This document shows, piece by piece, positions 20,179-53,570 of a DNA stretch of 64,000 nt. The stretch spans positions 10,811 through 74,810 of the forward strand of contig JAZDLX010000184.1 of assembly GCA_043801585.1 (NCBI GenBank), written 5' to 3'. The position numbers and the translations under genes were made by a program. The notes under the pieces were generated by a model. That model worked only from the letters and a program-made list of their open reading frames with translations. It did no database searches and was not told the DNA's origin. How positions within the stretch are numbered: the stretch's first letter is position 1; the number at the start of each line of letters is the position of its first letter. The DNA is from a bacterium (GTDB lineage Bacteria > Electryoneota > Electryoneia > Electryoneales > Electryoneaceae).

Positions 20179-23100
20179 CTATACCTTTTTCACTTGAAGT
20201 GTTGCTTCCGCCGCGCCTACCCGGGTCGTTTCCGACCCCTGCGCGCCTTTCAGCTTCTCGTTGATCTTCATCTTAACGGACAGAGTCTCATCACGGACCG
20301 TACCATTATGTTCATCGAGTGCCTTCAGAAGATCCGCGGCATCTGTCATCACCGCGAGCTCGATCCTGTCCTCCACATCGAAACCGGTGTCTTTTCGCAG
20401 CACCTGAACCTTGCGGATCAGGTCACGCACGAGACCCTCACGCAGCAATTCATCGCTGAGGCGTATGTCAAGGGCAACCACGATCGGCTGGTTCTCCACT
20501 TCACCGGCAACGATGGTATCCCGGGGATGGGAGACGAATTTGAACAGTTCCGCGGGAACCGGAATGTCCACGCCTGAAAGCTTCAGTTCACCGCTCTTAC
20601 GGACCGTTTCAACATACTGCTGCATGGTTTCCGCATCTGCCTTGTCGAGAGCCGCCTTGACCCTGGGCGCATCCCCCCGAAGCACCTTGCCGGCAGACAC
20701 AAGATCCAACATCAGCGCCTCTTCATCCAGCGCGTTTCGATGGTCGGCGAACTCGATGGTTTTGACGTTCAATTCATCGGCGATGGTCGCCACATCCTGT
20801 TTGATTATTTCCTGGAGATCCGATTCGCAGACGACATACAGCGTCTGCAGCGGCTGGCGGACCTTCAGCTGAGCCTGGTTGCGGAGGTTCAAGGCGGCGC
20901 GGATCACAGCACGATTCGTGAAAATTTCACCGAGCAGTTCGTCATCCACGCGGCTCTCGTCGGCAACGGGCCAATCGGCGAGATGAACGGATTCCACGGC
21001 GGATTTATCGAAGGGACGCACCGCCTCCTGCCAGATGTGCTCCGTGAGGAAGGGAATGATCGGCGCCATCACGCGCAGGATGGTCCTGATCGCCAAAGAA
21101 AGCACGACATACGCCGTGCGTTTGGAGTCACCGTCGGACTCTTTCCAAAATCGGCGGCGGTTGACACGAACATAAAAATTCGAGAGTTCATCGACGAACG
21201 TTTCAAATTCCCGGACGACGACCGTTGTGTTGTAGTCGTCATAGGCTGCCGTGCAACGGTCGAGGAATGCCTCTGTTCGCGCCAATGCCCAGCGGTCGCT
21301 GCGGGTCAACGCCTCTTCCACGATGGTTGTGCCGGTCAGATCGAGCTTGTCAAGCTGGGCATAGGTGTTGAAGAAAACGAAGATGTTCCAGAACCCAAGC
21401 AGTTTCCGGTGAACCTCCCAACCGAGATTGAAGCCGAAGCGGACATTCTGAACTGGATTCGCGGCACAGAAAAGGTAGCGCATGGCATCCGCGCCGATCT
21501 TGTCCGCAGCTTCGTCAAACTGGATCATGTAGCCGGTTTTACTGAACCGTCCGCCCTCTTCCGAGACGACGGATTCGTGGGCAAGAACCCGCTGATAGGG
21601 CGACCGGCCCGAGATCGTGACCCCCATGAAGAGCATCGAGTAGAACCACAGGCGCACCTGCTCGCGCATTTCACAGATCCACTCGGCGGGGTACCATTTC
21701 TTCTCCCACTCCTCCCGGTCACGGAAATACCCGCGAGTCGTGTAAGGAACGATCCCTGCATCGAGCCAGACATCCCCCACCTCCGGAATACGTGTCACAC
21801 CCTCCGCGTGGCAATGGGGGCAGGTGATCGTGATCGAATCGATCCATGGGCGATGCAATTCCGGGAGGTTGTCGACGGCGGGACCACCCAATTCCCTGAG
21901 ATGGTCTCGGCTTCCGACGACAGTCACCTCACCGCATTCGTGGCAAACGTAGAAGGGAAGCGGCATTCCATAAAACCGTTTCCGGCTGATGTTCCAATCA
22001 CCCATGTTCTGCAGCCAATCCTGCATCAGCAGACCTGCATGCGCCGGTCGCCAGTCAACCTCCGCTGCAGCTTTCAGCAGTTGCGGCTTCAACTCATCGG
22101 TGCGGATGAACCAGGCATTGACCAGCTTGAACATGATCGGTGTCTTGCAGCGCCAGCAAACCGGGTAACTGTGGGTGTAATCGTGGTCGTAAAACAGCTT
22201 TCCAAGTTTCCTGATCTCCGCGATCACATCGTCGGCGACCTGGGAAGCATCGCGCCCCTCGAGCCACCCATACCCGTTGACATACACTCCTGCTTCATCA
22301 ATCGGCTCGAGGCTGGGCAACCCCAACGAGTTGCCGAGTTCAAAGTCTTCCGCGCCGCAACCCGGTGCAATGTGAACGACCCCCGTTCCCTCCTCGGCAT
22401 CCACCTCATCCCAGGAGACGATCTTATGTGCACCCATCGCTGCCTGCGCCGGGAGATCGGGGAACACCGTCTCGTAATGAAGCCCGAACAGTTCTTCGCC
22501 TTTGAAAACGCGTAACACCTTGAACTTCACATGGTCAATCGCCTTCAGCGCGTCTTTACCGATGATGAGTGTCCCCTCCTGCCCTGCAACGGAGATTTCG
22601 GCGTATTCGATTGCAGGATTGATCGCGAGCGCAACGTTGGCGGCGAGTGTCCACGGTGTGGTCGTCCAAACGAGAACACGTTGTCCCGGCCTCTCTACGA
22701 TGGGCAGAGCGACGATCAACGAACGGTGTGTCATCTCACGGTGCGAACCGCTCATCTCATGTTCGGAAAGGGATGTGCCGCAGCGGGTGCACCATGACAT
22801 GGCGCGCTTGTCAGTGTAGATCCAGCCTTTGTCGTGGAGCGTTCTCAGGAAATGCCAGATACCCTGGATGTTCTCATCGGTATGAGTGTAGTAGCTGTTC
22901 GGCCAGTCCATCCACTGTCCCAATCGGATCGACTGCTCTGTCTGTTTAGTGGAATAATTCTTGACTCGGGCCTTGCAGGCGTTGACGAATTTCTCAATGC
23001 CGAATTTCTCGATCTCGGATTTGTCCTTGAAGCCGATTTCCTTCTCGACCTCGACCTCGACCCAGAGACCCTGGCTGTCGAATCCGTTCTGCCAATGGGT

Positions 23101-23385
23101 ATCATATCCTCGGAGGGTTTTGTACCTGACGAAAACATCTTTCAGAGTGCGTCCCCACGCATGATGCACTCCCATGGGATTGTTGGCGGTAATCGGTCCG
23201 TCAAGAAAACGGAACGTGGGTCCTCCCGCCAACTTCTCACGGAGCTTGTCGAAACAGTTGTGTTCTTTCCAGAACGCCAGCACATCATGCTCGATCTGGA
23301 TGAAATTCACACCGCTGCTTCCCTCGTCATGCGCTTTGTCATTGCCTCCGTTGACGCTACTCATCTTTCTCGCCTCGTGCTGCAT
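20179..23385 (-). CDS. ileS: Isoleucyl-tRNA synthetase (long, type-2-like form)
   Basis: 1068 aa. It has a HIGH-region variant (PITANNPMGVHHAWGRT), a KMSKS-region variant (GRFSKTG), CP1 editing-domain-sized insert, and Cys clusters (CWRCKTP, CHECG, CPHCH). The true start may be the Met at 23364. Confidence 0.95.
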   Translation of the reverse strand: MQHEARKMSSVNGGNDKAHDEGSSGVNFIQIEHDVLAFWKEHNCFDKLREKLAGGPTFRFLDGPITANNPMGVHHAWGRTLKDVFVRYKTLRGYDTHWQNGFDSQGLWVEVEVEKEIGFKDKSEIEKFGIEKFVNACKARVKNYSTKQTEQSIRLGQWMDWPNSYYTHTDENIQGIWHFLRTLHDKGWIYTDKRAMSWCTRCGTSLSEHEMSGSHREMTHRSLIVALPIVERPGQRVLVWTTTPWTLAANVALAINPAIEYAEISVAGQEGTLIIGKDALKAIDHVKFKVLRVFKGEELFGLHYETVFPDLPAQAAMGAHKIVSWDEVDAEEGTGVVHIAPGCGAEDFELGNSLGLPSLEPIDEAGVYVNGYGWLEGRDASQVADDVIAEIRKLGKLFYDHDYTHSYPVCWRCKTPIMFKLVNAWFIRTDELKPQLLKAAAEVDWRPAHAGLLMQDWLQNMGDWNISRKRFYGMPLPFYVCHECGEVTVVGSRDHLRELGGPAVDNLPELHRPWIDSITITCPHCHAEGVTRIPEVGDVWLDAGIVPYTTRGYFRDREEWEKKWYPAEWICEMREQVRLWFYSMLFMGVTISGRSPYQRVLAHESVVSEEGGRFSKTGYMIQFDEAADKIGADAMRYLFCAANPVQNVRFGFNLGWEVHRKLLGFWNIFVFFNTYAQLDKLDLTGTTIVEEALTRSDRWALARTEAFLDRCTAAYDDYNTTVVVREFETFVDELSNFYVRVNRRRFWKESDGDSKRTAYVVLSLAIRTILRVMAPIIPFLTEHIWQEAVRPFDKSAVESVHLADWPVADESRVDDELLGEIFTNRAVIRAALNLRNQAQLKVRQPLQTLYVVCESDLQEIIKQDVATIADELNVKTIEFADHRNALDEEALMLDLVSAGKVLRGDAPRVKAALDKADAETMQQYVETVRKSGELKLSGVDIPVPAELFKFVSHPRDTIVAGEVENQPIVVALDIRLSDELLREGLVRDLIRKVQVLRKDTGFDVEDRIELAVMTDAADLLKALDEHNGTVRDETLSVKMKINEKLKGAQGSETTRVGAAEATLQVKKV

Positions 23386-23654
23386 CGTAGTGTGTTGATC
23401 CGCCGTCTACATCCCAGGATAGGGATGTATGAAACCACTGTCTCCATTCGTTCACCAGAATCACCTCAGGAACGAGATACGGCTTCGAGCAGGTCAATAT
23501 AGGAAACACGGCGCCCGAACGCAGATACCGGAAGATGCTGTCCGAGACGGCTCGAGAATGGTTGATGAAACATTTTTTACCGGTCAACGCCTTCGGCTGG
23601 GAGACTGTGGAGACACACCCGGGAGTACGTCTTAATCGTTTCGGGTTTCTCCAC

Positions 23655-23683
23655 TTGATCCTTCGTCCGAAACCCTCTATGTT
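23655..23683 (+). promoter_or_regulatory. Candidate sigma70-type promoter for the aromatic leader transcript
   Basis: TTGATC (23655-23660), a 17-nt spacer, then TATGTT (23678-23683). This would place the transcription start at about 23690-23692, i.e. at the leader ATG. It is only a pattern match. Confidence 0.3.
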
Positions 23684-23691
23684 GGTTTGTC

Positions 23692-23829
23692 ATGATGGAT
23701 CGATTGCACAAGACGAGCGCACAGCAGGGTTGGTGGCGCAGCGAAAGCACTGCTTGGTGGTGGTATTACGCCAGGCCGGTGGGCGCCTCCGTCCGCTCGT
23801 TCGCATCCGTCTTCAGGACTCCCCTATAG
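23692..23829 (+). CDS. Candidate regulatory leader peptide (45 codons) rich in Trp/Tyr/Phe
   Basis: ATG 23692 to TAG 23827-23829 reads MMDRLHKTSAQQGWWRSESTAWWWYYARPVGASVRSFASVFRTPL. It has five Trp codons (23731-23736 and 23755-23763), two Tyr (23764-23769) and two Phe. It lies between a promoter-like element and a strong terminator, directly upstream of the aro-trp operon. No SD is visible. The ORF is below the 60-aa cut-off of the ORF track. Confidence 0.55.
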   Translation: MMDRLHKTSAQQGWWRSESTAWWWYYARPVGASVRSFASVFRTPL

Positions 23830-23853
23830 CGTTACGGATCAACGGCGAAGACA

Positions 23854-23889
23854 ACGCCCACCGGAATTTCCGGTGGGCGTTTTTTTATT
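23854..23889 (+). terminator. Intrinsic terminator (attenuator) 40 nt upstream of the DAHP synthase start
   Basis: CGCCCACCGG (23855-23864) pairs with CCGGTGGGCG (23870-23879) around the AATTT loop region, then TTTTTTTATT follows. The 3'-arm 10-mer recurs exactly at 23776-23785 inside the leader ORF, giving a potential antiterminator. Confidence 0.8.
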
Positions 23890-23929
23890 GCCCGCCGGCA
23901 CGTGAAACACGGCAGAAAGGAGCAGCGAG

Positions 23930-24961
23930 GTGATCATCGTTTTGAAGCCGGGCACGGACAAGAAGATCATCCAGGAGATACTGGATCATATCGCCGAAAC
24001 AGGCTTGAAGCCCCTGTACATGCCGGGGGAAGAGCGGGTTGTTCTCGGTGCGATCGGGGACGAACGGATTCTGGGCAAACTTCACCTTGAAAACCATCCC
24101 AGTGTCGAAGAGGTGAAGCCTGTCCTCGCTCCCTACAAGATGGTCAGCCGGGAGATCCATCCGGACGACACGGTGGTGTCCATCGGCGGGGTTCCTGTCG
24201 GAAATGGATTTTTCACGGTCATCGCCGGTCCCTGCGCCGTGGAAAGTCTCGATCAGATGCGGGAAACCGGACATGCCGTGGTGGCGGCGGGAGCCTCAGC
24301 CCTGCGCGGTGGGGCGTTCAAGCCCCGCACCAGCCCCTACTCCTTTCAGGGTCTGGGAGTGGAGGGCCTCGAGATTCTGTCTCAGGTGTCGCGGGAGTTG
24401 GGCGTTCCGACCGTTACCGAAGTTGTCGAGGTCGGGGACATCGAGGCCGTGGAACAACATTCCGACGCCTTTCAGGTCGGCGCACGCAACATGCAGAATT
24501 TCCGGCTCCTGATGGAACTGGGACAGTGCCGCAAGCCGGTTCTGCTGAAGCGAGGAATGGCGGCCACCATCGAGGACCTTCTGATGGCCGCCGAATACAT
24601 CCTCTCGCAGGGAAACTCAAACGTCATCCTCTGCGAACGCGGCATCCGAACCTTCGAAACCGCCACTCGCAACACTCTCGATCTGAACGCCGTTCCCTTT
24701 ATCAAGCAACGCAGCCACCTGCCGGTTCTCGTCGATCCCTCTCACGGCACAGGATTGCGTGAACTTGTGGCACCAATGTCTCTCGCGGCGGCGGCGGCCG
24801 GAGCGGATGGCCTGTTGATCGAGGTGCACAGGAATCCCGCACAAGCTCTTTCGGATGGACGGCAATCCCTCTTCCCCGATCAGTTTGCAGATCTCATGGA
24901 CAGGCTTCGTCCGTTGGTTTCTGCGCTTGGACGAAAACTGAACACAACGGTGGCGGCATGA
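23930..24961 (+). CDS. aroF: 3-deoxy-D-arabino-heptulosonate-7-phosphate (DAHP) synthase, class I-beta, with an N-terminal regulatory (ferredoxin/ACT-like) extension
   Basis: GTG start with the SD AAAGGAG. The motif is [16 protein letters not shown]. The ~80-aa N-terminal extension ([28 protein letters not shown]...) resembles that of Thermotoga-type DAHP synthases. Confidence 0.88.
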
Positions 24962-26514
24962 ACAGCGACTATCCAAAACGTTCCGTGGCTGCCGGCACCA
25001 TCCACCGCGAAGTGGACCCATTTGCCCTCTACCGCCATTTGACTGGGGGAGCACCGGACACCGCCCTGCTCGAATCCCGCGATGGGAACGGTAAGAACAA
25101 CACACAAAGCCTGCTTCTGGTACGTTCCGCCCTTCGCATCGAGGGTTACGGACGTCGGGTCAAGGTCACCCCTCTCACTGATGCCGGACGTTCGGTCCTC
25201 GAATCGCAACATGACCGATTGGTAAAAGTGGGAACAGCCAACTCTGAAGGAGACAGCCTTGTCATCGAGTTTCCACCCCTCGATGGGAATGCCAGCGAGG
25301 AGGAGCGGCTTTTGGCTAACGGTCCGCTGGATATCCTGCGGACATTCGCTTTCGGCTGGAATGGACAGGAGAAAACACCGATTCTGTTGACGGGGATGCT
25401 CGGGTATGATTTTCTGGAAACCTTTGAGAAACTCCCGCCTCCGAAGCGAGATGGCCTGAACACTCCGGACCTTCTCTTCGAACTTCCCGAAGTGCTCGTC
25501 CGCGTCGACCATCTCCACCGCGAAGTCCAGGTCCAGGTGCATTCCTACGGCAACCGAAAGCCCGATGATAAAGCGCTCGCTGAGGTCGTGAATGCCGTAC
25601 AGGCCTTCCCCGAAATGGACACAGCCTCCGTTTTCACCCAAGTTCCCGAAAAAATGCCGTCCGGCTTCCACGTGGATCTCGACGATTCAGCTTACCGCGC
25701 CATTGTCGAGTTGATGAAGCGCCACATTGTCGCCGGGGATGTCTTCCAGATTGTCCCGTCCCGCACCTTCAGCCTGCCCTGCAGGGACGCAATGCAAGCA
25801 TACCATGCATTGCGGGATTTGAATCCAAGCCCTTACCTGTTCTATCTCGCAGACAGGGATTTTACACTCTTTGGATCTTCGCCGGAGACCTGCGTTCGCG
25901 TGGCTGGCAATCCGCGAAAAGTCACCCTCTTCCCCATCGCCGGAACACGTCCACGTGGCAGAAACGGGGACGGCAGCCTCGATGTTGACCTCGACAACCG
26001 GCTTGAAGCAGAGCTGAAACTGCACGGGAAAGAGCTGGCTGAGCACATGATGCTCGTGGACCTGGCGCGCAACGATGTCGCCCGCATCAGCAATCCCGGG
26101 ACACGGCGGGTTTCCCGCCTGCTCGAAATCGAACGGTACAGCCATGTAATGCATCTCGTCAGCCGGGTTGAGGGAACCTTGCGCGACGGGTACGACGCTC
26201 TGCACGCCTACCTCGCAACCATGACGATGGGAACACTCACAGGAGCTCCGAAAGTCGAAGCCGCCCGTTTGCTGCGAAAACACGAAGCGGATCGACGCGG
26301 ACCCTATGGAGGCGCCGTGGGCTACCTGACGTCTGAAGGGATTCTCGACACCGCTATCGTGATCCGCTCAGCCGTCGTCCTCAGTGGGATCGCTCATGTC
26401 CGCGCGGGAGCCGGAATCGTGTTCGATTCTCAGCCGCAGGCGGAAGCGGATGAAACCCGCAGCAAGGCGAATGCGGTTCTTCAGGCGATAGCACTTTCGG
26501 AAGGAGGCCGGTGA
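24958..26514 (+). CDS. trpE: Anthranilate synthase component I
   Basis: 518 aa. Motifs are LFGSSPE and GTLTGAPKVEA, with a chorismate-binding C-terminal domain. ATGA overlap with aroF. Confidence 0.93.
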   Translation: MNSDYPKRSVAAGTIHREVDPFALYRHLTGGAPDTALLESRDGNGKNNTQSLLLVRSALRIEGYGRRVKVTPLTDAGRSVLESQHDRLVKVGTANSEGDSLVIEFPPLDGNASEEERLLANGPLDILRTFAFGWNGQEKTPILLTGMLGYDFLETFEKLPPPKRDGLNTPDLLFELPEVLVRVDHLHREVQVQVHSYGNRKPDDKALAEVVNAVQAFPEMDTASVFTQVPEKMPSGFHVDLDDSAYRAIVELMKRHIVAGDVFQIVPSRTFSLPCRDAMQAYHALRDLNPSPYLFYLADRDFTLFGSSPETCVRVAGNPRKVTLFPIAGTRPRGRNGDGSLDVDLDNRLEAELKLHGKELAEHMMLVDLARNDVARISNPGTRRVSRLLEIERYSHVMHLVSRVEGTLRDGYDALHAYLATMTMGTLTGAPKVEAARLLRKHEADRRGPYGGAVGYLTSEGILDTAIVIRSAVVLSGIAHVRAGAGIVFDSQPQAEADETRSKANAVLQAIALSEGGR

Positions 26515-27128
26515 TGAACGGCAGGTTGAACGTTTTCTTCCTCGACAATGTGGACTCCTTCGTTTTCAACCTCGTTGATGAATTCTCCCGGCGGAGGTGC
26601 AATGTCCAAATCTGGAGAAACACGATCTCCGTTGAACGGGCACTCGGCCTCCTCGCCACAATGCCGGAGCCGAAACTGCTGGTGATCAGCCCGGGGCCCG
26701 GATCGCCGGGAGAGGCGGGATGCAGTGTTGAATTGATCCGTCGCCTGCCGGTGGAGATCCCGATGCTGGGTGTCTGCCTCGGTCACCAGGCACTGATCGA
26801 AGCCTATGGCGGGATCGTAGGTCCCGCGGGTGAGATCGTTCACGGAAAATCATCCCTCCTCACCCACGACGGCACCGGCCTGTTCGAGAACATTCCCAGC
26901 CCGATGATGATCGGACGCTACCATTCTCTTTCGGCACTGAAGATGCCGGCATCGCTGCGAGTAATCGCTTCCCTGGGCGGCATCGTGATGGCTGTCGAGC
27001 ACGAATCACGACCCCTCTGGGGAGTGCAGTTCCATCCGGAATCCATTCTCACCCCGCACGGAGGACGACTTCTCGAAAACGTCTTGAGAAGAGTCGTTAC
27101 CCCCGTCAAGGAGGTACAGCATGCATGA
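26511..27128 (+). CDS. trpG: Anthranilate synthase component II (glutamine amidotransferase)
   Basis: 205 aa. It has the GATase-1 triad context (MLGVCLGHQAL, FHPES). 4-nt overlap with trpE. Confidence 0.92.
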   Translation: MMNGRLNVFFLDNVDSFVFNLVDEFSRRRCNVQIWRNTISVERALGLLATMPEPKLLVISPGPGSPGEAGCSVELIRRLPVEIPMLGVCLGHQALIEAYGGIVGPAGEIVHGKSSLLTHDGTGLFENIPSPMMIGRYHSLSALKMPASLRVIASLGGIVMAVEHESRPLWGVQFHPESILTPHGGRLLENVLRRVVTPVKEVQHA

Positions 27129-28131
27129 CTACCTCGACAGAGTAGCGAACCGTCAGGCGTTGAACGGTTCTGAAATGGAAGAGATTTTCAGCGCCATGGT
27201 CGCGGGCGAACTGGAACCGGTTTACATCGCTGCTCTGCTGGTTGGCCTGCGAACGAAGGGCGAAACCCCCGAAGAAATCGCCGGAGCGGCAAAAGCCCTG
27301 CGCGACCACGCTCTTCCCTTTCCCGCACCATCCGGAACCTTTGTGGATGTTTGTGGAACTGGCGGTGATTCCTCGGGCACGATCAACATTTCCACCGCCG
27401 CTGCCGTGGTGCTGGCGGAAATGGGAATTCCTGTTGCCAAACATGGCAATCGTTCCGTTTCGTCAAAATGCGGGTCCGCGGATCTTCTCGAAGCATTTGG
27501 CGTAAAGTTGGACCCCGAACCTGCAATAGCGCGGAAATGTCTTGATGAGGTGGGGATTTGCTTCCTCTTTGCGCCGCAGTATCACAGTGGCCTGCGTCAC
27601 GCCATGCCGATCCGCAAGGCGCTGAGAATGAGGACCATTTTCAACATCCTCGGCCCCCTTGCGAATCCGGCACAGCCGCCAGTGCAGTTAATGGGAGTCT
27701 ACGATGCAGCATTGGTTGTTCCCATTGCCAAAACGTTGAGTCATCTCGGCGCTCAAAAATCTCTCGTTGTCCACGGCGATGGACTCGACGAAATCAGCGT
27801 CTCTGCCCCGACGACAGCGGCGATGTCGACGAATGGGACCGTCGAAACACTCGAAATCATCCCGGAGGAAACGGGACTTAAACGGTATCCACAAGAAGCG
27901 TTGGCAGGTGGAGACGCAGCGGAAAACCGGAAGTTGATCGAAGCGCTTTTATCCGGAAAGGGATCTCCCGCCCATGAGGCAGCGGTGGCTATCAACGCCG
28001 GGGCCGCAGCCTGGGTCGCCGGAACTGCATCATCTCTTCGGGATGGCACTCAGTCAGCCCTCGAAACCATCCGTTCAGGCAAATGCATCGAACGGGTAAA
28101 CCAATGGGCGGAGATCTCACATGGTTCTTGA
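27121..28131 (+). CDS. trpD: Anthranilate phosphoribosyltransferase
   Basis: Motifs are VDVCGTGGDSSGTINIST and KHGNRSVSSKCGSADLLE. 8-nt overlap with trpG. Confidence 0.93.
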   Translation: MHDYLDRVANRQALNGSEMEEIFSAMVAGELEPVYIAALLVGLRTKGETPEEIAGAAKALRDHALPFPAPSGTFVDVCGTGGDSSGTINISTAAAVVLAEMGIPVAKHGNRSVSSKCGSADLLEAFGVKLDPEPAIARKCLDEVGICFLFAPQYHSGLRHAMPIRKALRMRTIFNILGPLANPAQPPVQLMGVYDAALVVPIAKTLSHLGAQKSLVVHGDGLDEISVSAPTTAAMSTNGTVETLEIIPEETGLKRYPQEALAGGDAAENRKLIEALLSGKGSPAHEAAVAINAGAAAWVAGTASSLRDGTQSALETIRSGKCIERVNQWAEISHGS

Positions 28132-29506
28132 CAGAATCATCGAACACAAGCGCCAGGAGGTCGATGACCAGCAGCGGAACCTGCCACTCGAGCAGTTTCT
28201 GGACCGGATCGATCCCAGCAATCGTTCCTTTCTCAAGGCGATCACCCGCGAACACACGGGCTTCATTCTCGAGGTAAAAAAGGCGTCGCCGTCACAAGGA
28301 TTGATCCGGGAGGATTTTGACCCACTCCTGATCGCGGAAGCGTACGCGCCGTTTGCGGATGCGATCAGTGTCCTGACAGACCGGAAATTCTTTCAGGGCA
28401 GCTTCCAGACGCTCGAAATCATACGCGGCGTAGCGCCTCAACCCGTGCTCTGCAAAGACTTCATCCTTGAGCCCTACCAGGTGTACAAGGCGCGGCTGCA
28501 TGGCGCCGACGCCGTTCTGCTGATGCTTTCGGTGCTTGACGATAATGAGTATTTGGCGTGCAACTCGGCCGTCGAGGAATTGCAGATGAGTGCGCTCGTC
28601 GAGGTGCACACACCGCAGGAGCTGGAGCGGGCAAGGAAACTCGGCGCGAAAATCATCGGGATCAACAATCGAAACCTGAAGACACTCGAGGTTGACCTTG
28701 ACACGACACTCCATCTCGCTCCGGAGGCAAAAACCTTTGCGGATGCCGTTGTCTGTGAATCGGGCATTCATTCGCATGATGACGTGCTCCGACTACGGGA
28801 TTGCGTGGACGCCTTTCTGGTCGGGACGAGCCTGATGGCGCGGCCGGATCTCGGGTTCGCTGTCCGGGAAATCATCTTTGGCCCAACGAAAGTGTGTGGA
28901 TTGACACGCGTGGAAGACGTCCGCGCGGCCCAGGCAGCGGGAGCCGTGTACGGCGGCATGATTTTTGCCGAAAATTCTCCGCGTCGAATAACATCGGAAC
29001 TCGCAATAGAACTGAACCGGGGGGCACCCCTGCGGTGGGTGGGAGTATTCGTGAATTCACCGGTGGAAACGGTGGCCGATCACGCTCACAGGCTGAACCT
29101 CACCGCAGTCCAGCTCAACGGAGATGAAAACGGGGAGTACATCCACACGCTTCGTCCCCTGCTGCCCGGAAGCTGCGAGATCTGGAAAGCGCACCCTATT
29201 GCGGACAGGATACCGACGCTGAAAATGGACGGTGTCGACCGGCACTTGCTCGATGCCTTCGACCCGGTCATGCGTGGCGGCACAGGAAAGACGTTCAATT
29301 GGACATTATTGAACGGCACGGACCGCAACAAGATCATTCTCTCGGGTGGTTTGAATCCGACCAACGCCGCTCAGGCGGATCGCGTTGGCGCTGCCATTCT
29401 TGATGTCAATTCCGGAGTCGAACAGGCGCCGGGCCGAAAAGATCCCAGGAAGCTGACAGAGTTTTTCAGAGAACTTCGGGGAGTGCGCACAGGGGGAGAA
29501 CGATGA
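28121..29506 (+). CDS. trpC: Bifunctional indole-3-glycerol-phosphate synthase / phosphoribosylanthranilate isomerase (TrpC-TrpF fusion)
   Basis: The N-terminal half is IGPS ([21 protein letters not shown]). The C-terminal half is PRAI ([11 protein letters not shown] ... GGTGKTFNW). Confidence 0.9.
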
Positions 29507-30693
29507 GACAGAATGGACGATTCGGCAAGTGGGGCGGTTGTTTCGTGCCCGAGATCCTGCTCCCTGCGCTCGAACAACTCGAAGCCGCGTGGCTGGATTT
29601 TCGCGAGAACGACAGCTTCCGCAAAGAACTCGACACCCTGCTGCGCGATTATGCCGGGCGGCCGACACCCCTTTACTGTTGCCGGAATCTCGCGGCGGAC
29701 ACACCCGCGCAAATCTGGCTGAAACGAGAAGACCTTCTCCACGGCGGGGCACACAAGACCAACCAGGTGCTGGGGCAGGCTTTGCTCGCACGCCACCTGG
29801 GAAAGACCCGGTTGATTGCGGAGACGGGTGCAGGACAGCACGGCGTCGCCACTGCGTTTGTCGGCGCTCTGTTTGGTTTCGAGACGGTGATCTACATGGG
29901 GGCGAAGGATGTCGAGCGCCAGCGGCAAAACGTTTTTCGCATGGAGCTGATGGGCGCTGCTGTGATCCCGGTGACCAAGGGATCGGCCACGTTAAAAGAC
30001 GCGATCAATGACGCGATGCGTGACTGGACAGCGAGCTATGAGACAACCCACTACATGCTCGGGACGGTTGCAGGCCCGCACCCCTTCCCCAGTATGGTAC
30101 GTGATTTTCAGAGCGTCATCGGAAACGAAGCCCGCAACCAGATACTAAGCAAAACAGGACGCCTTCCCGATGAAGTGATCGCCTGCGTGGGTGGCGGATC
30201 CAATGCCATCGGCATCTTTCACGCCTTCCTTGACGACCGGGATGTAACTCTCGTCGGAGTGGAACCGGCAGGACGCGGACTCGCAACGGGGCAGCATGGA
30301 GCATCTCTCGAACTTGGAACGCCCGGTGTACTTCACGGTTCGTTTACCCACCTGCTGCAGAACGGCGATGGTCAGGTTGAGGAATCCTACTCCATCTCAG
30401 CGGGATTGGACTATCCCGGAGTGGGACCTGAACACGTCCACCTGCGGGAAACAGGCCGAGCCACCTATACATCGGCGACAGACGAAGAGGCTCTGAATGC
30501 GTTCGAGGCTCTCGCACGCCACGAGGGCATCCTCCCCGCGCTTGAGTCCGCCCACGCCGTTGCCTACGCATTGAAGCGGGCGCGAGAAACAAGGGAAGAA
30601 TCCATTCTGCTCGTCAATCTCTCCGGGCGCGGCGACAAGGATCTCGAAACCGTTCGCAAGGCGCTTTCAACTGAGACGATGGAGGTGGCGTGA
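29503..30693 (+). CDS. trpB: Tryptophan synthase beta chain
   Basis: Motifs are [11 protein letters not shown] (PLP lysine), GAGQHG and [12 protein letters not shown] overlap with trpC. Confidence 0.95.
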
Positions 30694-31511
30694 GCGCACG
30701 CTATGAAAAGATGTTCCGTCGCCTTGGCGATCTGGGAGAGATCGCATTTGTCCCGTTCACGGTGCTCGGCGACCCGAACCCGGAAGCGAGCCTTGAGGCC
30801 ATCCGGGCGATGATTTCGGGGGGGGCCGATGCGCTCGAACTTGGCATTCCCTTTTCCGATCCGGTGGCGGACGGCCCGACGATTCAGGCGGCAGACATTC
30901 GGGCTCTCTCCTCGGGGTCGACCGTTCATTCAGCATGGAATCTGATTTCGAGGATACGAACCGAGAATCCCGATCTGCCCATCGGTCTGCTCCTTTACGC
31001 CAATCTCGTCGTGCACGGCGGACTGGAAGCCTTCTACCACAACGCCTTGAAAGCAGGTGTGGACTCGGTGCTCGTCGCCGATTTACCCACTCTTGAAGCG
31101 ATCCCATTCTGCACGGCTGCGCGGCGTGCGAGTATTGATCCCGTTCTGATCGCTCCACCAAACGCAGATGTTCAGCGGCTCGAAATCATTTCCCGAGAGG
31201 GCCGTGGGTACACCTACGTGATCACTCGGCGGGGAGTCACTGGAGCCGACGAACAGGTTCACCTGGACCACACCGCACTGCTCGATACGCTGCAAAGGTT
31301 TCAGGCGCCTCCCCCACTTTTCGGCTTCGGCATCTCGAAACCCGAACATGTGCTCGCAGCGAAATATGCCGGCGCCGCCGGTGTGATCAGCGGTTCGGCT
31401 GTCGTCTCCCGTATCGAAAGAAATCTTGGGGACATCGATTCCATGGTGAAGGACATCCATGATTTCGTCGTGGAGATGAAGGCGGCGACTCGCAACGGAG
31501 GCCGGTCATGA
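30690..31511 (+). CDS. trpA: Tryptophan synthase alpha chain
   Basis: Motifs are [18 protein letters not shown] and GFGISKPEH. 4-nt overlaps on both sides. Confidence 0.93.
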
Positions 31512-32602
31512 TTCTCAGCCATTTGACATTTATCCGAGAGTCCAGCAGCCGCATTCTTCTCGAATCCGGAGCGAGGAGCCACCTGAGCAACTTCGTCGAT
31601 CTCGATTTTGTGACGAGCGCCACCCTGATCGCTGATACGAACGTTTACTCGTTCCACGGCTCCGAAGTCCGTGATTCGCTCGAACACCTTTTCGGATCGG
31701 TTACCGTGATCACAGTCCCTCCCGGCGAAGGCAGCAAGACCCGGGACACCGTGGCCAAAATTCAGGATCGACTGAGCGAAGAGAAGGTTGACCGCCGAGG
31801 TCTCGTCGTCGGGTTGGGCGGAGGTGTGACGCTCGATATTGCCGGGTATGTCGCAGCGACCTATCTGCGAGGCATTCCCTGGATTGCGATGCCGACCTCT
31901 CTGCTCGCCCAGGTGGACGCGGGAATCGGTGGCAAGACCGGTGTCAATACGAGCAAAGGAAAGAATCTCGCTGGCGCGTTTCATCCACCTTTGCAGGTCA
32001 TCATCGACCCTGAGGTCCTGAATACTCTCCCCTTGATTGAATGGAGAAATGGACTCGTGGAAGCGGTCAAACATGCCTGGATTGCCGATGCAGATCTGTT
32101 CTCACTGTTCGAGAACACTGCTTCATCCCTGAAGAGCGGCCCGGACTCACATCTTCATGACTGGCTAAATGCAGCGATCCAAGTAAAAATATCTGTTGTT
32201 GCTGAGGATCCTTTTGAACTGGGAAAGCGCTCGATCCTTAACGCCGGGCATACAGTCGGTCACGCCATCGAGGCGGCGACCGATCATGCGATCAGGCATG
32301 GATTCGCCGTTGCGAGAGGTCTTGTTGTCGAATCGAGAGCGGCTGGCGAAAGAACCGGATTGCCTGTGGATCACATCCGGAGACTCGAACATCTGCTGGA
32401 AGAGCTGGAGGTGCTGCCGCCTACAAACGGCATCGATTTCGACTCTCTCCTCCCCTTCCTGCTTCGTGACAAAAAGAATCAGCGGGATCATGTTCGCATC
32501 TCCCTGCCGGCGAGCCTCGGCCGTTCCTCTGCGATTGATGGTTCGTGGACGATTGACGTGCAACCGGACGCGTTGCGCCACGCCTGGGAGAGTTTCCAAT
32601 GA
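31508..32602 (+). CDS. aroB: 3-dehydroquinate synthase
   Basis: Motifs are GLGGGVTLDIAGYVAATYLRGIPWIAMPTSLLAQVDAGIGGKTGVN and GHTVGHAIE. Confidence 0.9.
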   Translation: MILSHLTFIRESSSRILLESGARSHLSNFVDLDFVTSATLIADTNVYSFHGSEVRDSLEHLFGSVTVITVPPGEGSKTRDTVAKIQDRLSEEKVDRRGLVVGLGGGVTLDIAGYVAATYLRGIPWIAMPTSLLAQVDAGIGGKTGVNTSKGKNLAGAFHPPLQVIIDPEVLNTLPLIEWRNGLVEAVKHAWIADADLFSLFENTASSLKSGPDSHLHDWLNAAIQVKISVVAEDPFELGKRSILNAGHTVGHAIEAATDHAIRHGFAVARGLVVESRAAGERTGLPVDHIRRLEHLLEELEVLPPTNGIDFDSLLPFLLRDKKNQRDHVRISLPASLGRSSAIDGSWTIDVQPDALRHAWESFQ

Positions 32603-34035
32603 TCTGTGTGACAGGTCTTGAACGGACGATAGCGGAACTGGCCCGCCGACTCGAACAGTATTCCGGGCAGTTGCAGGAAGTGCGGCTGGACGCGCTCGAC
32701 CGGATCGAAGAAGATATCTACCACCTGCTGAAACTTCACGATCCGTTGATCGTCACCTGCCGCGGGACAGCCGAGGGAGGACTGTTCACGGGAACGCCCG
32801 GAGAGCAATCGGAGATCCTGCATCGTCTGCTCATCTCCAACCCAGCCTATGTCGACCTCGAGACGAGCATCCCGTTAAACATCCGCAGGACACTTGAACA
32901 TGCCGGGCAGAACTCTCGAATCATCACGTCGCATCATCAGTTCAAAACCTCCTTGACGATTCGAAACGATCTCCTGAAGCTCTCCGATGAACCGGGCGAT
33001 CTGTTGAAATATGCAGTTCAGGTCGGCGACGCGGCGGAATTGCTTCCGCTCCTTGAGACGCAGATTCCGGATCACCGCCCCTTCCTGCGCATCGGGATGG
33101 GCGATGCGGGAATGATCACGCGCGGACTCTTTTCCTCGTTCGGATCGCCATGGACGTACGTCACCGCGGATTCCTCCACTTCATCTGCACCGGGTCAGTT
33201 GACCGTCGAACAGGCAAAGCGGTGGCGGATCGACTCCCTTTCCCACCCTGCACCATACGGGTTGATTGGAGGACCACAGGTCATCCACTCGCCGGGAATG
33301 GACGTCTACAACCAGTTGTTTGCAGGTTACGGTGTGGATGCCCTGTATCTGCCCATTATTACCGCTCGCCTCGGGGATACCCTTCCTTTGCTGAAGGCGC
33401 TCGATTTCGCGGGACTCAGCGTCACCATGCCCGCGAAGATCGCCGCTTTGGAACTCTGCGACGAACGATCCGAGGAAGCGGTTGCTGCTGGTGCGGTGAA
33501 CACTATCCTCTTTAATCACAAACAGTTCATCGGCGACAACACGGATGTTACGGCCTTGCGCGAACTGCTTCGTGACGAGACAGGAAAGGTCCTTATCCTC
33601 GGTGCGGGCGGTGTGGCGCGAGCCGCCCTTGCGGCTGTGGGACAACGGGGAATTGTGACCGCCCGTGACCCGGAACGCGCAACAGCCGTCGCCGGTATGT
33701 TTGGCGCTGCGACTCTGGAGTGGGAGCACCGCGATCGATGCGGCGCGAGAACAATTGTCAACGCCACTCCCCTCGGCATGGACGGCATCTCCAGCCCCCT
33801 TCCCGCGGAGACTCCACTTGCGGACAAACGGATCATCGACGTTGTGATGAAACGGGACGGCACACCGTTGACGCGCCGTGCAAAGGAGGCCGGAGCAAAA
33901 GTCGTGGACGGTTTCGAGATCTGGGTGCGACAGGGTGCTGCACAGATGAGCAGATTCCTCGACCGCAAGGTCACCGCAGGAGAGTTGCGAACGCTCCTCG
34001 ACGAGCTTCACGCTGGAGCATTCAATGGACCTTAG
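32599..34035 (+). CDS. Bifunctional type I 3-dehydroquinate dehydratase / shikimate 5-dehydrogenase (AroD-AroE fusion)
   Basis: The N-terminal ~215 aa are AroD-like (EVRLDAL ... SHHQF ... LLKYAV, the Schiff-base Lys context). The C-terminal ~260 aa are AroE-like (YGLIGGPQVIHSPGMDVYN, GLSVTMPAK, ILGAGGVARA). Confidence 0.85.
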   Translation: MICVTGLERTIAELARRLEQYSGQLQEVRLDALDRIEEDIYHLLKLHDPLIVTCRGTAEGGLFTGTPGEQSEILHRLLISNPAYVDLETSIPLNIRRTLEHAGQNSRIITSHHQFKTSLTIRNDLLKLSDEPGDLLKYAVQVGDAAELLPLLETQIPDHRPFLRIGMGDAGMITRGLFSSFGSPWTYVTADSSTSSAPGQLTVEQAKRWRIDSLSHPAPYGLIGGPQVIHSPGMDVYNQLFAGYGVDALYLPIITARLGDTLPLLKALDFAGLSVTMPAKIAALELCDERSEEAVAAGAVNTILFNHKQFIGDNTDVTALRELLRDETGKVLILGAGGVARAALAAVGQRGIVTARDPERATAVAGMFGAATLEWEHRDRCGARTIVNATPLGMDGISSPLPAETPLADKRIIDVVMKRDGTPLTRRAKEAGAKVVDGFEIWVRQGAAQMSRFLDRKVTAGELRTLLDELHAGAFNGP

Positions 34036-35218
34036 GCTGTCGATCTCCGCCCCCGCCTCGAAGAGTGCGACCCAGCGGGCTCTGTTCCTGTCGACGCTCG
34101 CGTCAGGAACGAGTACGCTTCACGGACCGCTCGACTGCGAAGACAGCCGGGCTCTCGCAGATGCTTTACGCGGTTTGGGTGTGAAGATCGATCAGCAATC
34201 GGACCGGTGGATCGTATCTGGAGACACTCTGCAAGCGGCTTCGGCGACCCTGTACTGCTCAAACGCGGGAACCTGCATCCGTTTTCTGGCGGCGGCGTCT
34301 CTGCTGTTGCCATCATCGGTGACACTGGACGCCGGAGAGCAGTTGCGGAAACGGCCGTTGCAAGACATTGCGGATGCTCTCAGACGTGCAGGAATGCACG
34401 TTGAATTCACGGATCGTGAAGGGTTTGCTCCGCTTACGATCACTCCTGGAGATTCCATCCGTAACGAGATCGAGCTGGATGCCAGCCGCACCAGCCAGTT
34501 CCTTTCGGGCCTGTTGATGGTTGCGCCTCGCTTGGGCGGTATAAGTATCCGCACCGGAAAACATCTGGTCTCGCGTCCCTATGTGGATCTGACGCTCGCC
34601 CTGATGTCGGCGTTCGGAGGACCTCCTGTCCGTGAACATGAAAACGTTTTTTTCGTACCGGCGGGAGCCTACCAGGCGTGCGACATGACCATCGAGGGCG
34701 ACTGGTCCGCCGCCGCGATGATCCTGACAGCGGGCTGGATTTCCGGTCTGAAAATAGACATCCCCAATCTGAATTCTGAAAGTGTCCAGGGCGACCGGGC
34801 GATCGTTCTGTTTCTGGAAGAACTGGGGAGGCCCCGCCATCACCGTTTCGACCTGGCGATATGCCCTGATCTGATCACTCCGCTCGCAGTGGCCTGCGCA
34901 TTTGCGGAGCATCCCAGTGAGATTCGGAACGTTGCACATGCCCGGATCAAGGAAAGTGACCGGATTGCCGCCACGGTCCAAATGCTGAACGCTGTTGGCG
35001 TCGCGGCCGAACAACTTGCAGATGGATTGCTCATCACGCCGGGAGGTGCTTTTCACCCGGCAACCGTCGAGGATCATGGCGATCATCGCGTCGCCATGGC
35101 GGCGGGGGTGATTTCTTTACGCATCCCCGGAGTGAAACCGACAACCCCGGAATGCGTAAAAAAATCCTACCCGAATTTCTGGAATGTCATGGAGGAACTG
35201 CGATGTTCCTTACGCTGA
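34025..35218 (+). CDS. aroA: 3-phosphoshikimate 1-carboxyvinyltransferase (EPSP synthase), short form
   Basis: Motifs are SKSATQRALFLSTLA, RIKESDRIAA and DHRVAMAA. At 397 aa it is somewhat shorter than typical AroA. Confidence 0.88.
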   Translation: MDLRLSISAPASKSATQRALFLSTLASGTSTLHGPLDCEDSRALADALRGLGVKIDQQSDRWIVSGDTLQAASATLYCSNAGTCIRFLAAASLLLPSSVTLDAGEQLRKRPLQDIADALRRAGMHVEFTDREGFAPLTITPGDSIRNEIELDASRTSQFLSGLLMVAPRLGGISIRTGKHLVSRPYVDLTLALMSAFGGPPVREHENVFFVPAGAYQACDMTIEGDWSAAAMILTAGWISGLKIDIPNLNSESVQGDRAIVLFLEELGRPRHHRFDLAICPDLITPLAVACAFAEHPSEIRNVAHARIKESDRIAATVQMLNAVGVAAEQLADGLLITPGGAFHPATVEDHGDHRVAMAAGVISLRIPGVKPTTPECVKKSYPNFWNVMEELRCSLR

Positions 35219-35724
35219 TCGGTCCCCGTGGCGCAGGGAAAACAACTCTCGGCCGTAAGCTCGCCGACCGAGTCGGAGTGAGCTTCACTGATCTCGACAC
35301 TGTGATCGAGTGGAAAGAGGGGCGTTCCGTGCCGGACATCTTTGCACACGGTGGCGAGGCTGAATTTCGAATCCTGGAACGGGAAGCATTCGAAGAAATG
35401 CACTGCCGCGATGCAACGATTCTGGCGACAGGTGGTGGAGTCATTTTTCATCCGGAGACTCAGATTGAATTGGGAATCACGGGGAAAACGATTCTCCTGC
35501 TCGCCGACCCGATAGTTCTTGCGGAGCGGATACGGGGTTCTGAACGTCCCAGCCTCACGGGTCTGGACGCGGCGAGTGAGATTGGACAGGTTCTCGCCGA
35601 GCGCCGTGAGATCTACGAAAAGTGCGCGGCGCGTACGATTGACACAACAATCCTTTCGATTGAAGAGGCGGTCGATGTCCTCGAACACATTTGGAAATCT
35701 CTTTCGGGCGACCAGTTTCGGTGA
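35203..35724 (+). CDS. aroK: Shikimate kinase
   Basis: Walker A LIGPRGAGKTTLG. ATG 35203 is preceded by GGAGGA, and the gene overlaps the aroA end by 16 nt. The ORF-track start at 35152 lies inside aroA and is unlikely. Confidence 0.88.
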   Translation: MFLTLIGPRGAGKTTLGRKLADRVGVSFTDLDTVIEWKEGRSVPDIFAHGGEAEFRILEREAFEEMHCRDATILATGGGVIFHPETQIELGITGKTILLLADPIVLAERIRGSERPSLTGLDAASEIGQVLAERREIYEKCAARTIDTTILSIEEAVDVLEHIWKSLSGDQFR

Positions 35725-36760
35725 GTCCCATGGTGCAGGCATTGGCGTCGTCATCGATGGCGTGCCACCGCGCCTGCGTCTCGACCTGGAGGCCATCCAA
35801 CTCCAGCTCGACCGACGCCGTCCCGGCCAGAGCAGAGTAACAACATCGCGATCCGAATCGGACCGTGTTGAGGTTCTCTCCGGACTCCATGAGGGGGTTA
35901 CCACCGGTGCGCCTCTAACCCTGTTCGTTCGGAACAGCAACACCCGGCCGGAAGACTACGAAAATCTTCGCAACACCTTCCGCCCCGGGCATGCGGATTT
36001 CACCTGGTACAAGAAATACGGAGTCCGTGATTATCTCGGAGGCGGACGCTCCTCCGGACGCGAGACCATCGCCCGGGTGGCGGCGGGCGCGGTGGCGAGG
36101 CAGATCCTCGCGGTTCATGGAATTTCCGTTCTCGGATACGTCGTTTCGGTGGGAGACGTCGAAGTTGAATCGTTTGACCCTGCTATCATCGAATCGAATC
36201 CTGTGCGCTGCGCGGACCCTGACGCCGCCGCCCGGATGGAAGCCCTGATTCTTCGCGTGAAGGAAGATGGCGACTCGGTTGGTGGAATCGTCGAGGTCCG
36301 CTGCCAGGGGGTACCTGCCGGACTCGGCGATCCGGTGTTCGACAAACTGGATGCCCTGATTGCCCGGGCAATTCTTTCCATCGGTGCGACGAAAGGGATC
36401 GAATTTGGATTGGGGTTTGCAATGGCTCGAATGCGCGGCAGCCAGGCTCACGATCCGATCCGTCCAGATGGAGTCGATGGCGACCGGGCGGGAGGCATTC
36501 TCGGCGGTGTCTCAAACGGAGGCGATATCGTTTTCCGTGTTGCAGTGAAACCACCTGCGTCAATTGAACTCGAACAGGATACCGTCACCCTCGACAATCA
36601 ACCCCACCGCATCGCCGTACAGGGGCGTCATGACCCTTGCATCGCACCGAGATTGGTTCCTGTTGCCGAGGCGATGACGGCGCTCGTGCTTGTCGATGTA
36701 TTGATGAGACAGACGGCACTTCGAGGAGTACTGCCGGAAGATGGTGATAACGATGCTTGA
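35675..36760 (+). CDS. aroC: Chorismate synthase
   Basis: MSSNTFGNLFRATSFGESHGAGIGVVIDG at the chosen start (ATG 35675, SD GAAGAGG). A further motif is GGRSSGRET. The upstream part of the ORF overlaps aroK. Confidence 0.92.
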   Translation: MSSNTFGNLFRATSFGESHGAGIGVVIDGVPPRLRLDLEAIQLQLDRRRPGQSRVTTSRSESDRVEVLSGLHEGVTTGAPLTLFVRNSNTRPEDYENLRNTFRPGHADFTWYKKYGVRDYLGGGRSSGRETIARVAAGAVARQILAVHGISVLGYVVSVGDVEVESFDPAIIESNPVRCADPDAAARMEALILRVKEDGDSVGGIVEVRCQGVPAGLGDPVFDKLDALIARAILSIGATKGIEFGLGFAMARMRGSQAHDPIRPDGVDGDRAGGILGGVSNGGDIVFRVAVKPPASIELEQDTVTLDNQPHRIAVQGRHDPCIAPRLVPVAEAMTALVLVDVLMRQTALRGVLPEDGDNDA

Positions 36761-53311: not shown

Positions 53312-53343
53312 TAAAAAAAAACCGCAACCGATCTGGTTGCGGT
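53312..53343 (-). terminator. Intrinsic terminator of the cold-shock gene
   Basis: On the minus strand, ACCGCAACC-AGATC-GGTTGCGGT is followed by T9 (the plus-strand A-run at 53313-53321), 24 nt after the csp stop. Confidence 0.8.
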
Positions 53344-53366
53344 CATGTCGTCAGGACGAAGCTATG

Positions 53367-53570
53367 CTACTTGCCTATCCGCTTGACATTCGTAGCGGCC
53401 GGGCCTTTCTGCCCCTGCTCCAGGTCGAATTCTACTTCCTCTCCTTCGGCGAGCGTCTTGAAACCGTCTCCCTGAATCGAGCTGAAGTGAACGAATACAT
53501 CACGACCGTCTTCCGCTTCAATAAAACCGAATCCCTTGGACTCGTTGAACCACTTAACTTTACCCTGCAT
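53367..53570 (-). CDS. csp: Cold-shock protein (CspA family)
   Basis: [32 protein letters not shown] carries the RNP1 motif (KGFGFI) and the RNP2 motif (VFVHF). It is 67 aa from Met 53570. Confidence 0.93.

Follow-up and report, generated by a model that had tools for sequence, protein, structure and literature searches.

The leader region and its operon

The 64,000-nucleotide stretch of contig JAZDLX010000184.1 analysed here (the window, whose coordinates are used throughout) contains, between the divergently transcribed ileS gene and a gene for 3-deoxy-D-arabino-heptulosonate 7-phosphate (DAHP) synthase, a short leader region, a predicted transcription attenuator, which is the subject of this analysis. 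Pfam and NCBIfam scans identified the DAHP synthase gene, aroG, as the first of an operon of 14 genes in the order DAHP synthase, trpE, trpG, trpD, trpCF, trpB, trpA, aroB, aroDE, aroA, aroK, aroC, chorismate mutase-prephenate dehydrogenase (tyrA) and a class IV aminotransferase that resembles branched-chain aminotransferases. The DAHP synthase is of the Bacillus type, with a ferredoxin-like domain at the N-terminus. Scans of the region 23930-38800 revealed no promoter-like site on the plus strand and no strong terminator, and only 30 nt, again with no promoter-like site, separate the T-tract of the leader terminator from the Shine-Dalgarno (SD) sequence of aroG. Since there is neither room nor a site for a separate promoter past the leader terminator, transcription of the operon must pass this terminator. 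The minus-strand gene ileS ends in a terminator of its own (20159-20133).

The leader contains an open reading frame (ORF) with the translation MMDRLHKTSAQQGWWRSESTAWWWYYARPVGASVRSFASVFRTPL, which runs from an ATG at 23692 to a TAG at 23827-29 and includes five Trp and two Tyr residues among its 45 codons (Table 1). The three consecutive Trp codons of the main cluster are the single WWW occurrence in the six-frame translation of the window, where 0.5 would be expected, and five Trp within 11 codons are found nowhere else in this translation. An alignment of leader peptides, searched against 5.8 billion protein clusters, had no match. The leader ORF is thus unannotated everywhere, and relatives were reached via DAHP synthase instead. 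An ORF of 132 amino acids in another frame (23535-23933, plus strand) spans the whole leader; it has no Pfam match, and stop codons break it up in every relative. This ORF is spurious, and a gene caller might annotate it in place of the real leader.

The terminator consists of AACGCCCACCGG-AATTT-CCGGTGGGCGTT (23853-23881) followed by a T7 tract that extends to 23886, and begins 25 nt past the leader stop codon. According to the terminator scan its stem has 13 pairs, 9 of which are G-C, and the hairpin has a predicted energy of -24.8 kcal/mol. Only three terminators with a perfect stem occur in the window; this one is the strongest, and the others are located at ordinary gene 3' ends, after ileS and after a cold-shock gene. 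The 10-mer CCGGTGGGCG is present twice, as part of the terminator 3' arm (23870-79) and within the ORF (23776-85), and the latter copy can form a 10-bp pairing with the terminator 5' arm (23855-64) that is mutually exclusive with the terminator. The extended antiterminator (23776-23864) has a predicted energy of -40.0 kcal/mol. In the unconstrained fold of the leader, the 5' half of the ORF pairs with its 3' half as one long hairpin, which stands next to the terminator and is composed of the stems 23714-19/23798-803, 23731-39/23783-91 and 23748-59/23769-81. The pairing of GGTGGCGC (23732-39) with GCGCCTCC (23783-90), with one T.T mismatch, is part of this minimum-free-energy fold. Trp codons 14-15 are placed within the 5' arm of the lower stem, Trp codons 22-24 supply the 5' arm of hairpin 1:2, and its loop is formed by Tyr codons 25-26. 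Following the numbering used for classical attenuators, the two arms of the long hairpin, or anti-antiterminator, are called segments 1 and 2, and those of the terminator segments 3 and 4.

An earlier sequence-only reading of this DNA had described the ORF, the terminator with its T7 tract, the repeat of the terminator 3' arm, the pairing of 23732-39 with 23783-90 and the promoter, and all of these were recovered where it had placed them. It had also proposed a comparison of fold energies; this gave the values stated above for the terminator and the extended antiterminator, and did not reproduce a switch at equilibrium (see below).

Table 1. Positions of the leader elements and of the downstream operon in the window.
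Feature	Position	Strand	Remarks
-35 hexamer TTGATC	23655-23660	+	TTGAC(C/A) in 10 of 11 relatives
-10 hexamer TATGTT	23678-23683	+	8 nt ahead of leader ATG; 17-nt spacer to -35
Leader ORF, 45 codons plus stop, without SD	23692-23829	+	all 7 close sequences have this frame alone open
Segment 1, anti-antiterminator 5' arm	23714-23759	+	outer stem 23714-19, lower 23731-39, upper 23748-59
Trp codons 14-15, first regulatory cluster	23731-23736	+	GWW, SW or WGWW in close relatives
Trp codons 22-24 then Tyr codons 25-26, main regulatory cluster	23755-23769	+	
Segment 2, anti-antiterminator 3' arm	23769-23803	+	antiterminator strand: core CCGGTGGGCG, 23776-85
Central hairpin, holding the leader stop codon (23827-29)	23794-23847	+	predicted to stack on helix 2:3
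Segment 3, terminator 5' arm, alternative partner of segment 2	23853-23865	+	
Segment 4, terminator 3' arm plus T7 tract	23869-23886	+	
SD AAGGAG (23917-22) and GTG start (23930) of the DAHP synthase gene	23917-23932	+	aroG-type, FXD domain
14-gene operon	23930-38800	+	Pfam and NCBIfam scans; ORFs overlap or abut

Occurrence and conservation of the leader

Searches with DAHP synthase led to 11 further distinct upstream regions from metagenomes, in which this enzyme is 73-92% identical to that of the window. Single-protein scans of contigs from genomes and metagenomes provided just three loci that hold a close relative (L001, L009 and L010, with a leader in L009 that is the same as in L001), and most loci were obtained from exact-protein look-ups. 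The closest named DAHP synthase is that of a Candidatus Eisenbacteria metagenome-assembled genome (L010, 80% identity). The close relatives, with DAHP synthases 77-92% identical, have the leader peptides MMERLHKTSALQGWWRSDSTAWWWYYAKPVGASLRSFESTCRNPL (L025), MMDQLHKTSALQGWWRSDSTGWWWYYAKPVGASLRSFESTCRIPL (L015), MIDRVHRTNAQFGSWRSDNSAWWWYYIRPVGASLRSFDALHEDPV (L001), MSISLHKTDAYQGWWRSMDAAWYWYTEPVGAPLRISEPV (L018), MIADMHKTQRSWGWWLSSDAGWWWYYAKPMGAPLRMSSAMDHV (L023) and MMTDRSKTQNSWGWWLSSDAGWWWYYAKPMGTSLRISASRGTV (L024). In the distant relatives (73-80% identical) the peptides are MLSTQQINSRRWWRCGHIRGGPLVMH (L029), MIGKNKINRWRWWRNVELSGGPPFRD (L033), MGRFVFYTFAYWCRSTGCGGPPRCSL (L027), MHARCAIRLGVDKYPYSCAYRRWRDVMPVSAPLLCVSFESPNDS (L010) and MTGDLHQPCVRLGCWRHGSTSWCWRSGPEGAPLHRPRRA (L022), the last from a very GC-rich sequence in which no U-tract terminator is visible.

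A promoter followed after 7-10 nt by an ATG-initiated short ORF occurs in all 11 relatives, and in 10 of them, the exception being L022, the terminator 3' arm has a GGTGGG-type copy and a U-tract terminator is present. The leader is located directly before aroG-trpE-trpG, with trpE following the DAHP synthase gene in 11 of 11 cases. No leader was found in L026, an AT-rich sequence in which a DAHP synthase of 74% identity is encoded by a stand-alone gene. The leader ORFs comprise 39-45 codons, and in the seven closest sequences, including the window, no frame but that of the leader runs uninterrupted from the ATG to a stop codon ahead of the terminator. Trp is invariant at positions 15, 22 and 24 of these close sequences; the main cluster reads WWWYY in six of the seven and WYWY in L018. 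Two Tyr codons are retained in all seven, in varying arrangement, despite their location in a hairpin loop, which fits a constraint on coding. Both Phe codons of the window leader are positioned downstream of segment 2 and are not kept in the relatives. Across all relatives the regulatory codons take the forms WW...WWWYY, WYWY, RWRWW, RRWW and FVFYTFAYW, a variation that fits sensing of aromatic aminoacyl-tRNAs.

The last of these forms is found in L027 (leader at 1455-1594, aroG at 1610), where three Phe, two Tyr and one Trp are encoded within nine codons and a Trp run is absent. Its layout is unchanged, with a promoter, an ATG, a GGTGGGCC-type copy and a terminator, and tyrA is a separate gene upstream. 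The L027 leader suggests that specificity shifts among the aromatic amino acids within the leader family. In L022 (2785-3003) a promoter and an ATG-initiated ORF with the codons CW...WCW are accompanied by a CCACCGG/CCGGCGG hairpin that is situated inside the ORF and has no U-tract. This attenuator may be degenerate or work otherwise, e.g. via Rho or translation.

The promoter of the window matches 8 of 12 positions and was not called by the generic promoter scan, which has a threshold of 9 of 12 positions; the orthologous TTGACC-17-TATGTT in L015 was called. In the relatives the -10 hexamers (TAnGTT or TAGCTT type) and the TTGAC-type -35 hexamers are conserved, and the spacers of 17-18 nt between them have sequences that are unrelated. 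The -10 hexamer and the ATG are 7-10 nt apart in each of the 12 distinct sequences, and the leader ORF's start codon is ATG in all of them, although that of the adjacent aroG is often GTG. An SD sequence never precedes the leader ORF in these 12 sequences, whereas aroG has AAGGAG. Because the spacing between the -10 hexamer and the ATG is conserved, a 5' untranslated region of 0-3 nt and initiation of the leaderless type are probably the simplest reading. In L025 the promoter spacer contains a perfect palindrome, CCGGTAATTACCGG (71-99, between the -35 and -10 hexamers), that is not present in the other relatives and could be a repressor operator or a product of chance.

The helices are conserved as well. 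In the seven close sequences the fraction of alignment cells that are paired amounts to 98.8% for the terminator, 98.6% for the antiterminator (23776-85/23855-64) and 86% for the anti-antiterminator. RNAalifold analysis of these sequences returned the long anti-antiterminator hairpin together with the terminator, with three compensatory pairs in the outer stem. One segment-3 position (C/U) has changed in a manner compatible with both partners, giving a U-A pair in helix 3:4 of L001 and an A-U pair in helix 2:3 of L023 and L024, and L027 has the outermost core pair reversed in each of the three segments, from G/C/G to C/G/C. A central hairpin comparable to that of the window is predicted in each relative, with a poorly conserved sequence. 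The leader stop codon lies 42 nt past segment 2 in the window and 24-38 nt ahead of segment 3 in all relatives.

Folding, proposed mechanism and alternative explanations

Taken together, the comparison of sequences and the folding models make it likely that the leader is a ribosome-mediated, Trp-responsive transcription attenuator that gates the aroG-trpEGDCFBA-aroB-DE-A-K-C-tyrA-aminotransferase operon, with part of the signal probably coming from charged tRNA-Tyr besides tRNA-Trp. The attenuator postulated in the sequence-only reading, a Trp-rich leader peptide with alternative terminator and antiterminator helices, is supported by the conservation of the ORF frame, the Trp codons, the promoter-ATG spacing and the three helices. 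Its expectation for related genomes was borne out, with a leader ORF and Trp codons that are conserved and a few compensatory changes in the helices, and its suggestion of leaderless translation can be graded probable, given the missing SD and the distance of 7-10 nt in 12 of 12 sequences. Of the aromatic codons that it had pointed out, those for Trp fit the model best; sensing of Tyr is plausible and weaker, because a ribosome at Y26 already covers part of the antiterminator strand, and the two Phe codons are set apart by the position and lack of conservation described above.

According to the proposed mechanism, transcription would start at the leader AUG, or no more than about 3 nt from it, under the direction of TTGATC-17-TATGTT, so that the 45-codon ORF would be translated from a leaderless or near-leaderless mRNA. 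In the emerging RNA, segment 1 would pair with segment 2 to give the long hairpin. If no ribosome is stalled, this 1:2 hairpin would stay, or would re-form in the wake of a ribosome that has moved on to the stop codon (23827), a position within the central hairpin some 25 nt ahead of segment 3. Helix 3:4 could then form and transcription would terminate at the T7 tract. A ribosome waiting at W22-W24, or at W14-15 where it would open the base of the hairpin, would cover segment 1 and leave the CCGGTGGGCG core of segment 2 free to pair, ahead of the synthesis of segment 4, with CGCCCACCGG in segment 3, in which case the terminator would not form and the operon would be transcribed. The 2:3 pairing is predicted to stack on, and to be aided by, the pre-formed central hairpin. 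An unstalled ribosome, on the other hand, would enforce termination by melting the central hairpin and sitting between segments 2 and 3, with helix 1:2 re-forming behind it.

Folding calculations with ribosome masks agree with the placement of the regulatory codons. A ribosome at W22-24 masks about 23740-75, and at W14-15 it opens the long hairpin at its base only; when a ribosome at any of the Trp codons masks segment 1, the probability P of helix 2:3 is at least 0.9. It is 0 with the A site at any of codons 27-36, when segment 2 is covered, and a ribosome at Y25 or Y26 starts to cover segment 2, which lowers P(2:3) to 0.8 and then 0.5. In step-wise folding, helix 1:2 is the minimum-free-energy structure from the moment that segment 2 emerges (23780-92) until segment 3 is complete. 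The barrier for refolding from 1:2 to 2:3 is estimated at about 12 kcal/mol, and in the model such refolding is slow as compared to the transcription of the roughly 17 nt needed for segment 4; for the conversion of 2:3 to 3:4 the estimate is about 9 kcal/mol. Since equilibrium folding cannot show the switch, the order of events matters, as in Escherichia coli.

Several observations weigh against the proposed attenuator. At equilibrium the full-length leader of the window's clade always favours the terminator, also when ribosome masks are included, and an RNA that ends at segment 3 favours helix 2:3 (P about 0.9) even without a ribosome. The model consequently needs kinetic trapping, with barriers that come from a heuristic path search only. 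Covariation among the seven close sequences alone is not above that of shuffles. In a nine-row alignment of the close sequences plus distant relatives, helix 3:4 is 96% paired with a covariation of 0.278 (0.155 in shuffles, reached by 0 of 500) and helix 2:3 is 91% paired with a covariation of 0.142 (0.094 in shuffles, reached by 8 of 500), but the rows of this alignment were lined up manually by their complementary cores, a choice that favours pairing, and related sequences can exceed shuffles without any structure. Among the relatives, L022 has the ORF and W codons and no U-tract terminator, and L010 has one Trp only, next to three Tyr, with one mismatch in each of the helices 2:3 and 3:4. 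Finally, the position of the stop codon, 42 nt past segment 2, differs from that in E. coli trpL, and how a non-stalled ribosome would prevent 2:3 pairing is the least secure step of the mechanism.

The promoter, the ORF and the strong terminator also constitute a complete small transcription unit, and it was considered whether they represent an independent small gene or small RNA, with a transcript of about 195 nt or a 45-residue peptide as product, incidental Trp codons, and an operon that is expressed constitutively by read-through or from another promoter. Trans-acting products derived from an attenuator, rnTrpL and peTrpL, are known in Sinorhizobium (PMC6614838, PMC7298713), and the peptide has conserved motifs (HKT, GWWRS and P(V/M)GA). 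These motifs coincide with the RNA helices, however, and the N- and C-terminal residues vary freely. An exact copy of a terminator arm within the ORF that is conserved and co-varies with segment 3 would be purposeless in a plain small gene, the unit is always found directly before aroG-trpE, and the short promoterless gap between the terminator and the aroG SD leaves the operon dependent on the leader. This explanation is very improbable, and a function in trans would add to attenuation, not replace it. Control of the terminator and antiterminator by a trans-acting factor, such as a TRAP-like or other RNA-binding protein, an uncharged tRNA (T-box-like) or a small ligand, with the ORF being fortuitous, would share with the proposed mechanism the alternative helices 2:3 and 3:4, which are common to all attenuation mechanisms, and is favoured by the failure of equilibrium folding alone to reproduce a ribosome-dependent switch. 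We consider it very improbable, as no T-box, riboswitch or other leader family reached the threshold and the leader has one GAG and one TAG triplet, as compared to the 9-11 (G/U)AG repeats needed by TRAP. Moreover, the ORF frame, the fixed distance between the -10 hexamer and the ATG and the aromatic codons in segment 1 were kept amid divergence, which factor binding does not predict.

GC-rich DNA yields long spurious ORFs, of which the 132-residue ORF at 23535-23933 is an example, and the expected number of WWW runs somewhere in 64 kb is about 0.5; the leader could in principle be a GC-rich intergenic ORF with TGG repeats that lies by chance, or through an artefact, beside an ordinary terminator. 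This is hardly conceivable and effectively refuted by comparison, since the architecture is kept in 11 other distinct sequences, down to a DAHP synthase identity of 73%. The overlapping 132-residue ORF is broken by stop codons in the relatives and the leader frame never is, and with ileS on the other strand and ended by its own terminator, the plus-strand terminator ends nothing but the leader. The attenuator reading can also be extended to a distinct architecture that would be widespread in an uncultured lineage, with a leaderless ORF that integrates Trp (in two hierarchical clusters) and Tyr, with Phe added in relatives, a non-stalled ribosome that enforces termination as it translates across the antiterminator strand and opens the central hairpin, on which the antiterminator would otherwise nucleate, and an abundant attenuated RNA of about 195 nt or its 45-residue peptide possibly acting in trans. 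We put this extension forward tentatively and regard it, as a whole, as rather unlikely.

Relation to known attenuators and neighbouring genes

An Rfam scan of the region with E values up to 10 gave only sub-threshold matches that are driven by the terminator, to RcsR1, ylbH and Trp_leader. The match to Trp_leader (RF00513) has a score of 17.5 bits (E = 1.1) as compared to a gathering threshold of 41, and the leader is not a member of this family. A competing RNA family, which the sequence-only reading had named as a possible objection to its proposal, was thus not found at threshold. Similar to E. coli trpL (RF00513), the leader has tandem Trp codons in segment 1, the exclusive helices 1:2, 2:3 and 3:4, and a U-tract terminator just before the first biosynthetic gene, and the distance of 15 nt between the last Trp codon and segment 2 is similar in the two systems. 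There is no detectable homology between them, however. The ORF of the leaders described here has 39-45 codons instead of 14, with two Trp clusters plus Tyr and no SD, and 14 genes, those of the common shikimate pathway and tyrA among them, would be controlled. Whereas the ribosome parks on segment 2 in the classic case, the ORF here reads through segment 2, with the stop codon 42 nt later in the central hairpin; this reading through the antiterminator strand is the unusual trait of the leader.

The sequence-only reading had overstated the novelty of the system, as leaderless leader peptides, attenuators of DAHP synthase genes and attenuated aromatic supraoperons are all on record. Leaderless leader peptides with mapped transcription start sites have been described in Deinococcus deserti (14 cases including trpEGD; PMC4007540), for trpL of Sinorhizobium meliloti (PMC6614838) and for the poly-Cys small ORFs of mycobacteria (bioRxiv 10.1101/834739). 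Like the present leader they lack an SD and were missed by gene callers, and their start codon is no more than 1 nt from the transcript 5' end. Lineage and sequence family are different, and the start sites are mapped in those cases and deduced here from the 7-10 nt between the -10 hexamer and the ATG.

Among DAHP synthase attenuators, the aroR leader of Corynebacterium glutamicum, with the codons Phe-Tyr-Phe, precedes the aroF (DAHP synthase) operon (Neshat et al. 2014, as cited in PMC11802643). As far as this secondary account goes, it is likewise an aromatic-codon leader that controls an operon led by DAHP synthase, and the FVFYTFAYW leader of L027 is comparable to it. The same account describes aroR as Phe-responsive and not as gating trp genes, unlike the leader in the window, which is dominated by Trp and stands before an aroG that is joined with trp and aro genes. 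In Desulfovibrio vulgaris, the aroA'-aroB'-pheA-aroF-tyrA-[trp operon] supraoperon has a predicted attenuator (Table 7 in PMC1173090), so that in both organisms a single predicted attenuator precedes a large cluster in which common-pathway genes are joined with tyrA and trp genes. D. vulgaris has another gene order and other enzymes, the sequence is unrelated, and the attenuators listed there stem from an automated database without analysis of leader peptides. Nothing on trp attenuation was found in Rodionov 2004 (PMC545781). The leader is in all likelihood a new, unannotated and lineage-specific example of textbook attenuation, not a new regulatory principle.

Its description provides a testable regulatory annotation for a 14-gene operon with essentially all genes for shikimate, Trp and Tyr biosynthesis in a lineage that is known from metagenomes only. 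It also defines an unannotated attenuator family of 12 distinct examples, for which there is no Rfam model and no ORF has been called in 5.8 billion protein clusters, and from which a covariance model could be built for use in annotation. The Trp-only, Trp plus Tyr, and Phe/Tyr/Trp leaders before the same aroG-trpE form a natural series for the evolution of attenuator specificity, and a phylogenetic group is added to those with leader peptides that are apparently translated from leaderless mRNAs.

For the last gene of the operon (37775-38800, plus strand), the best NCBIfam matches are models of branched-chain aminotransferases, all below their cut-offs; its position after tyrA suggests a role as aromatic or prephenate aminotransferase. 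The small cold-shock-domain gene mentioned above (53320-53590, minus strand) is followed by one of the three strong intrinsic terminators of the window, from which it follows that the organism uses canonical hairpin and U-tract terminators at gene ends. IleS (20179-23385, minus strand) is of the long type-2 form with a C-terminal DUF5915 domain. Only three close homologues (84, 82 and 74% identical) occur among 5.8 billion protein clusters, the next being Clostridia-type IleS2 proteins with at most 56% identity, which points either to a very sparsely sampled lineage or to horizontal acquisition. The assignment to an FCB-like lineage in the sequence-only reading could not be confirmed, the IleS homologues being uninformative on this point. 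In the ileS-proximal half of the intergenic region, the block CGGCTTCGAGCA[G/C]GTCAATATAGGAAACAC is conserved between the window (23470-23510) and L001 (3545-3585) with diverged flanks, and it may be the ileS promoter or an element of the minus-strand 5' untranslated region.

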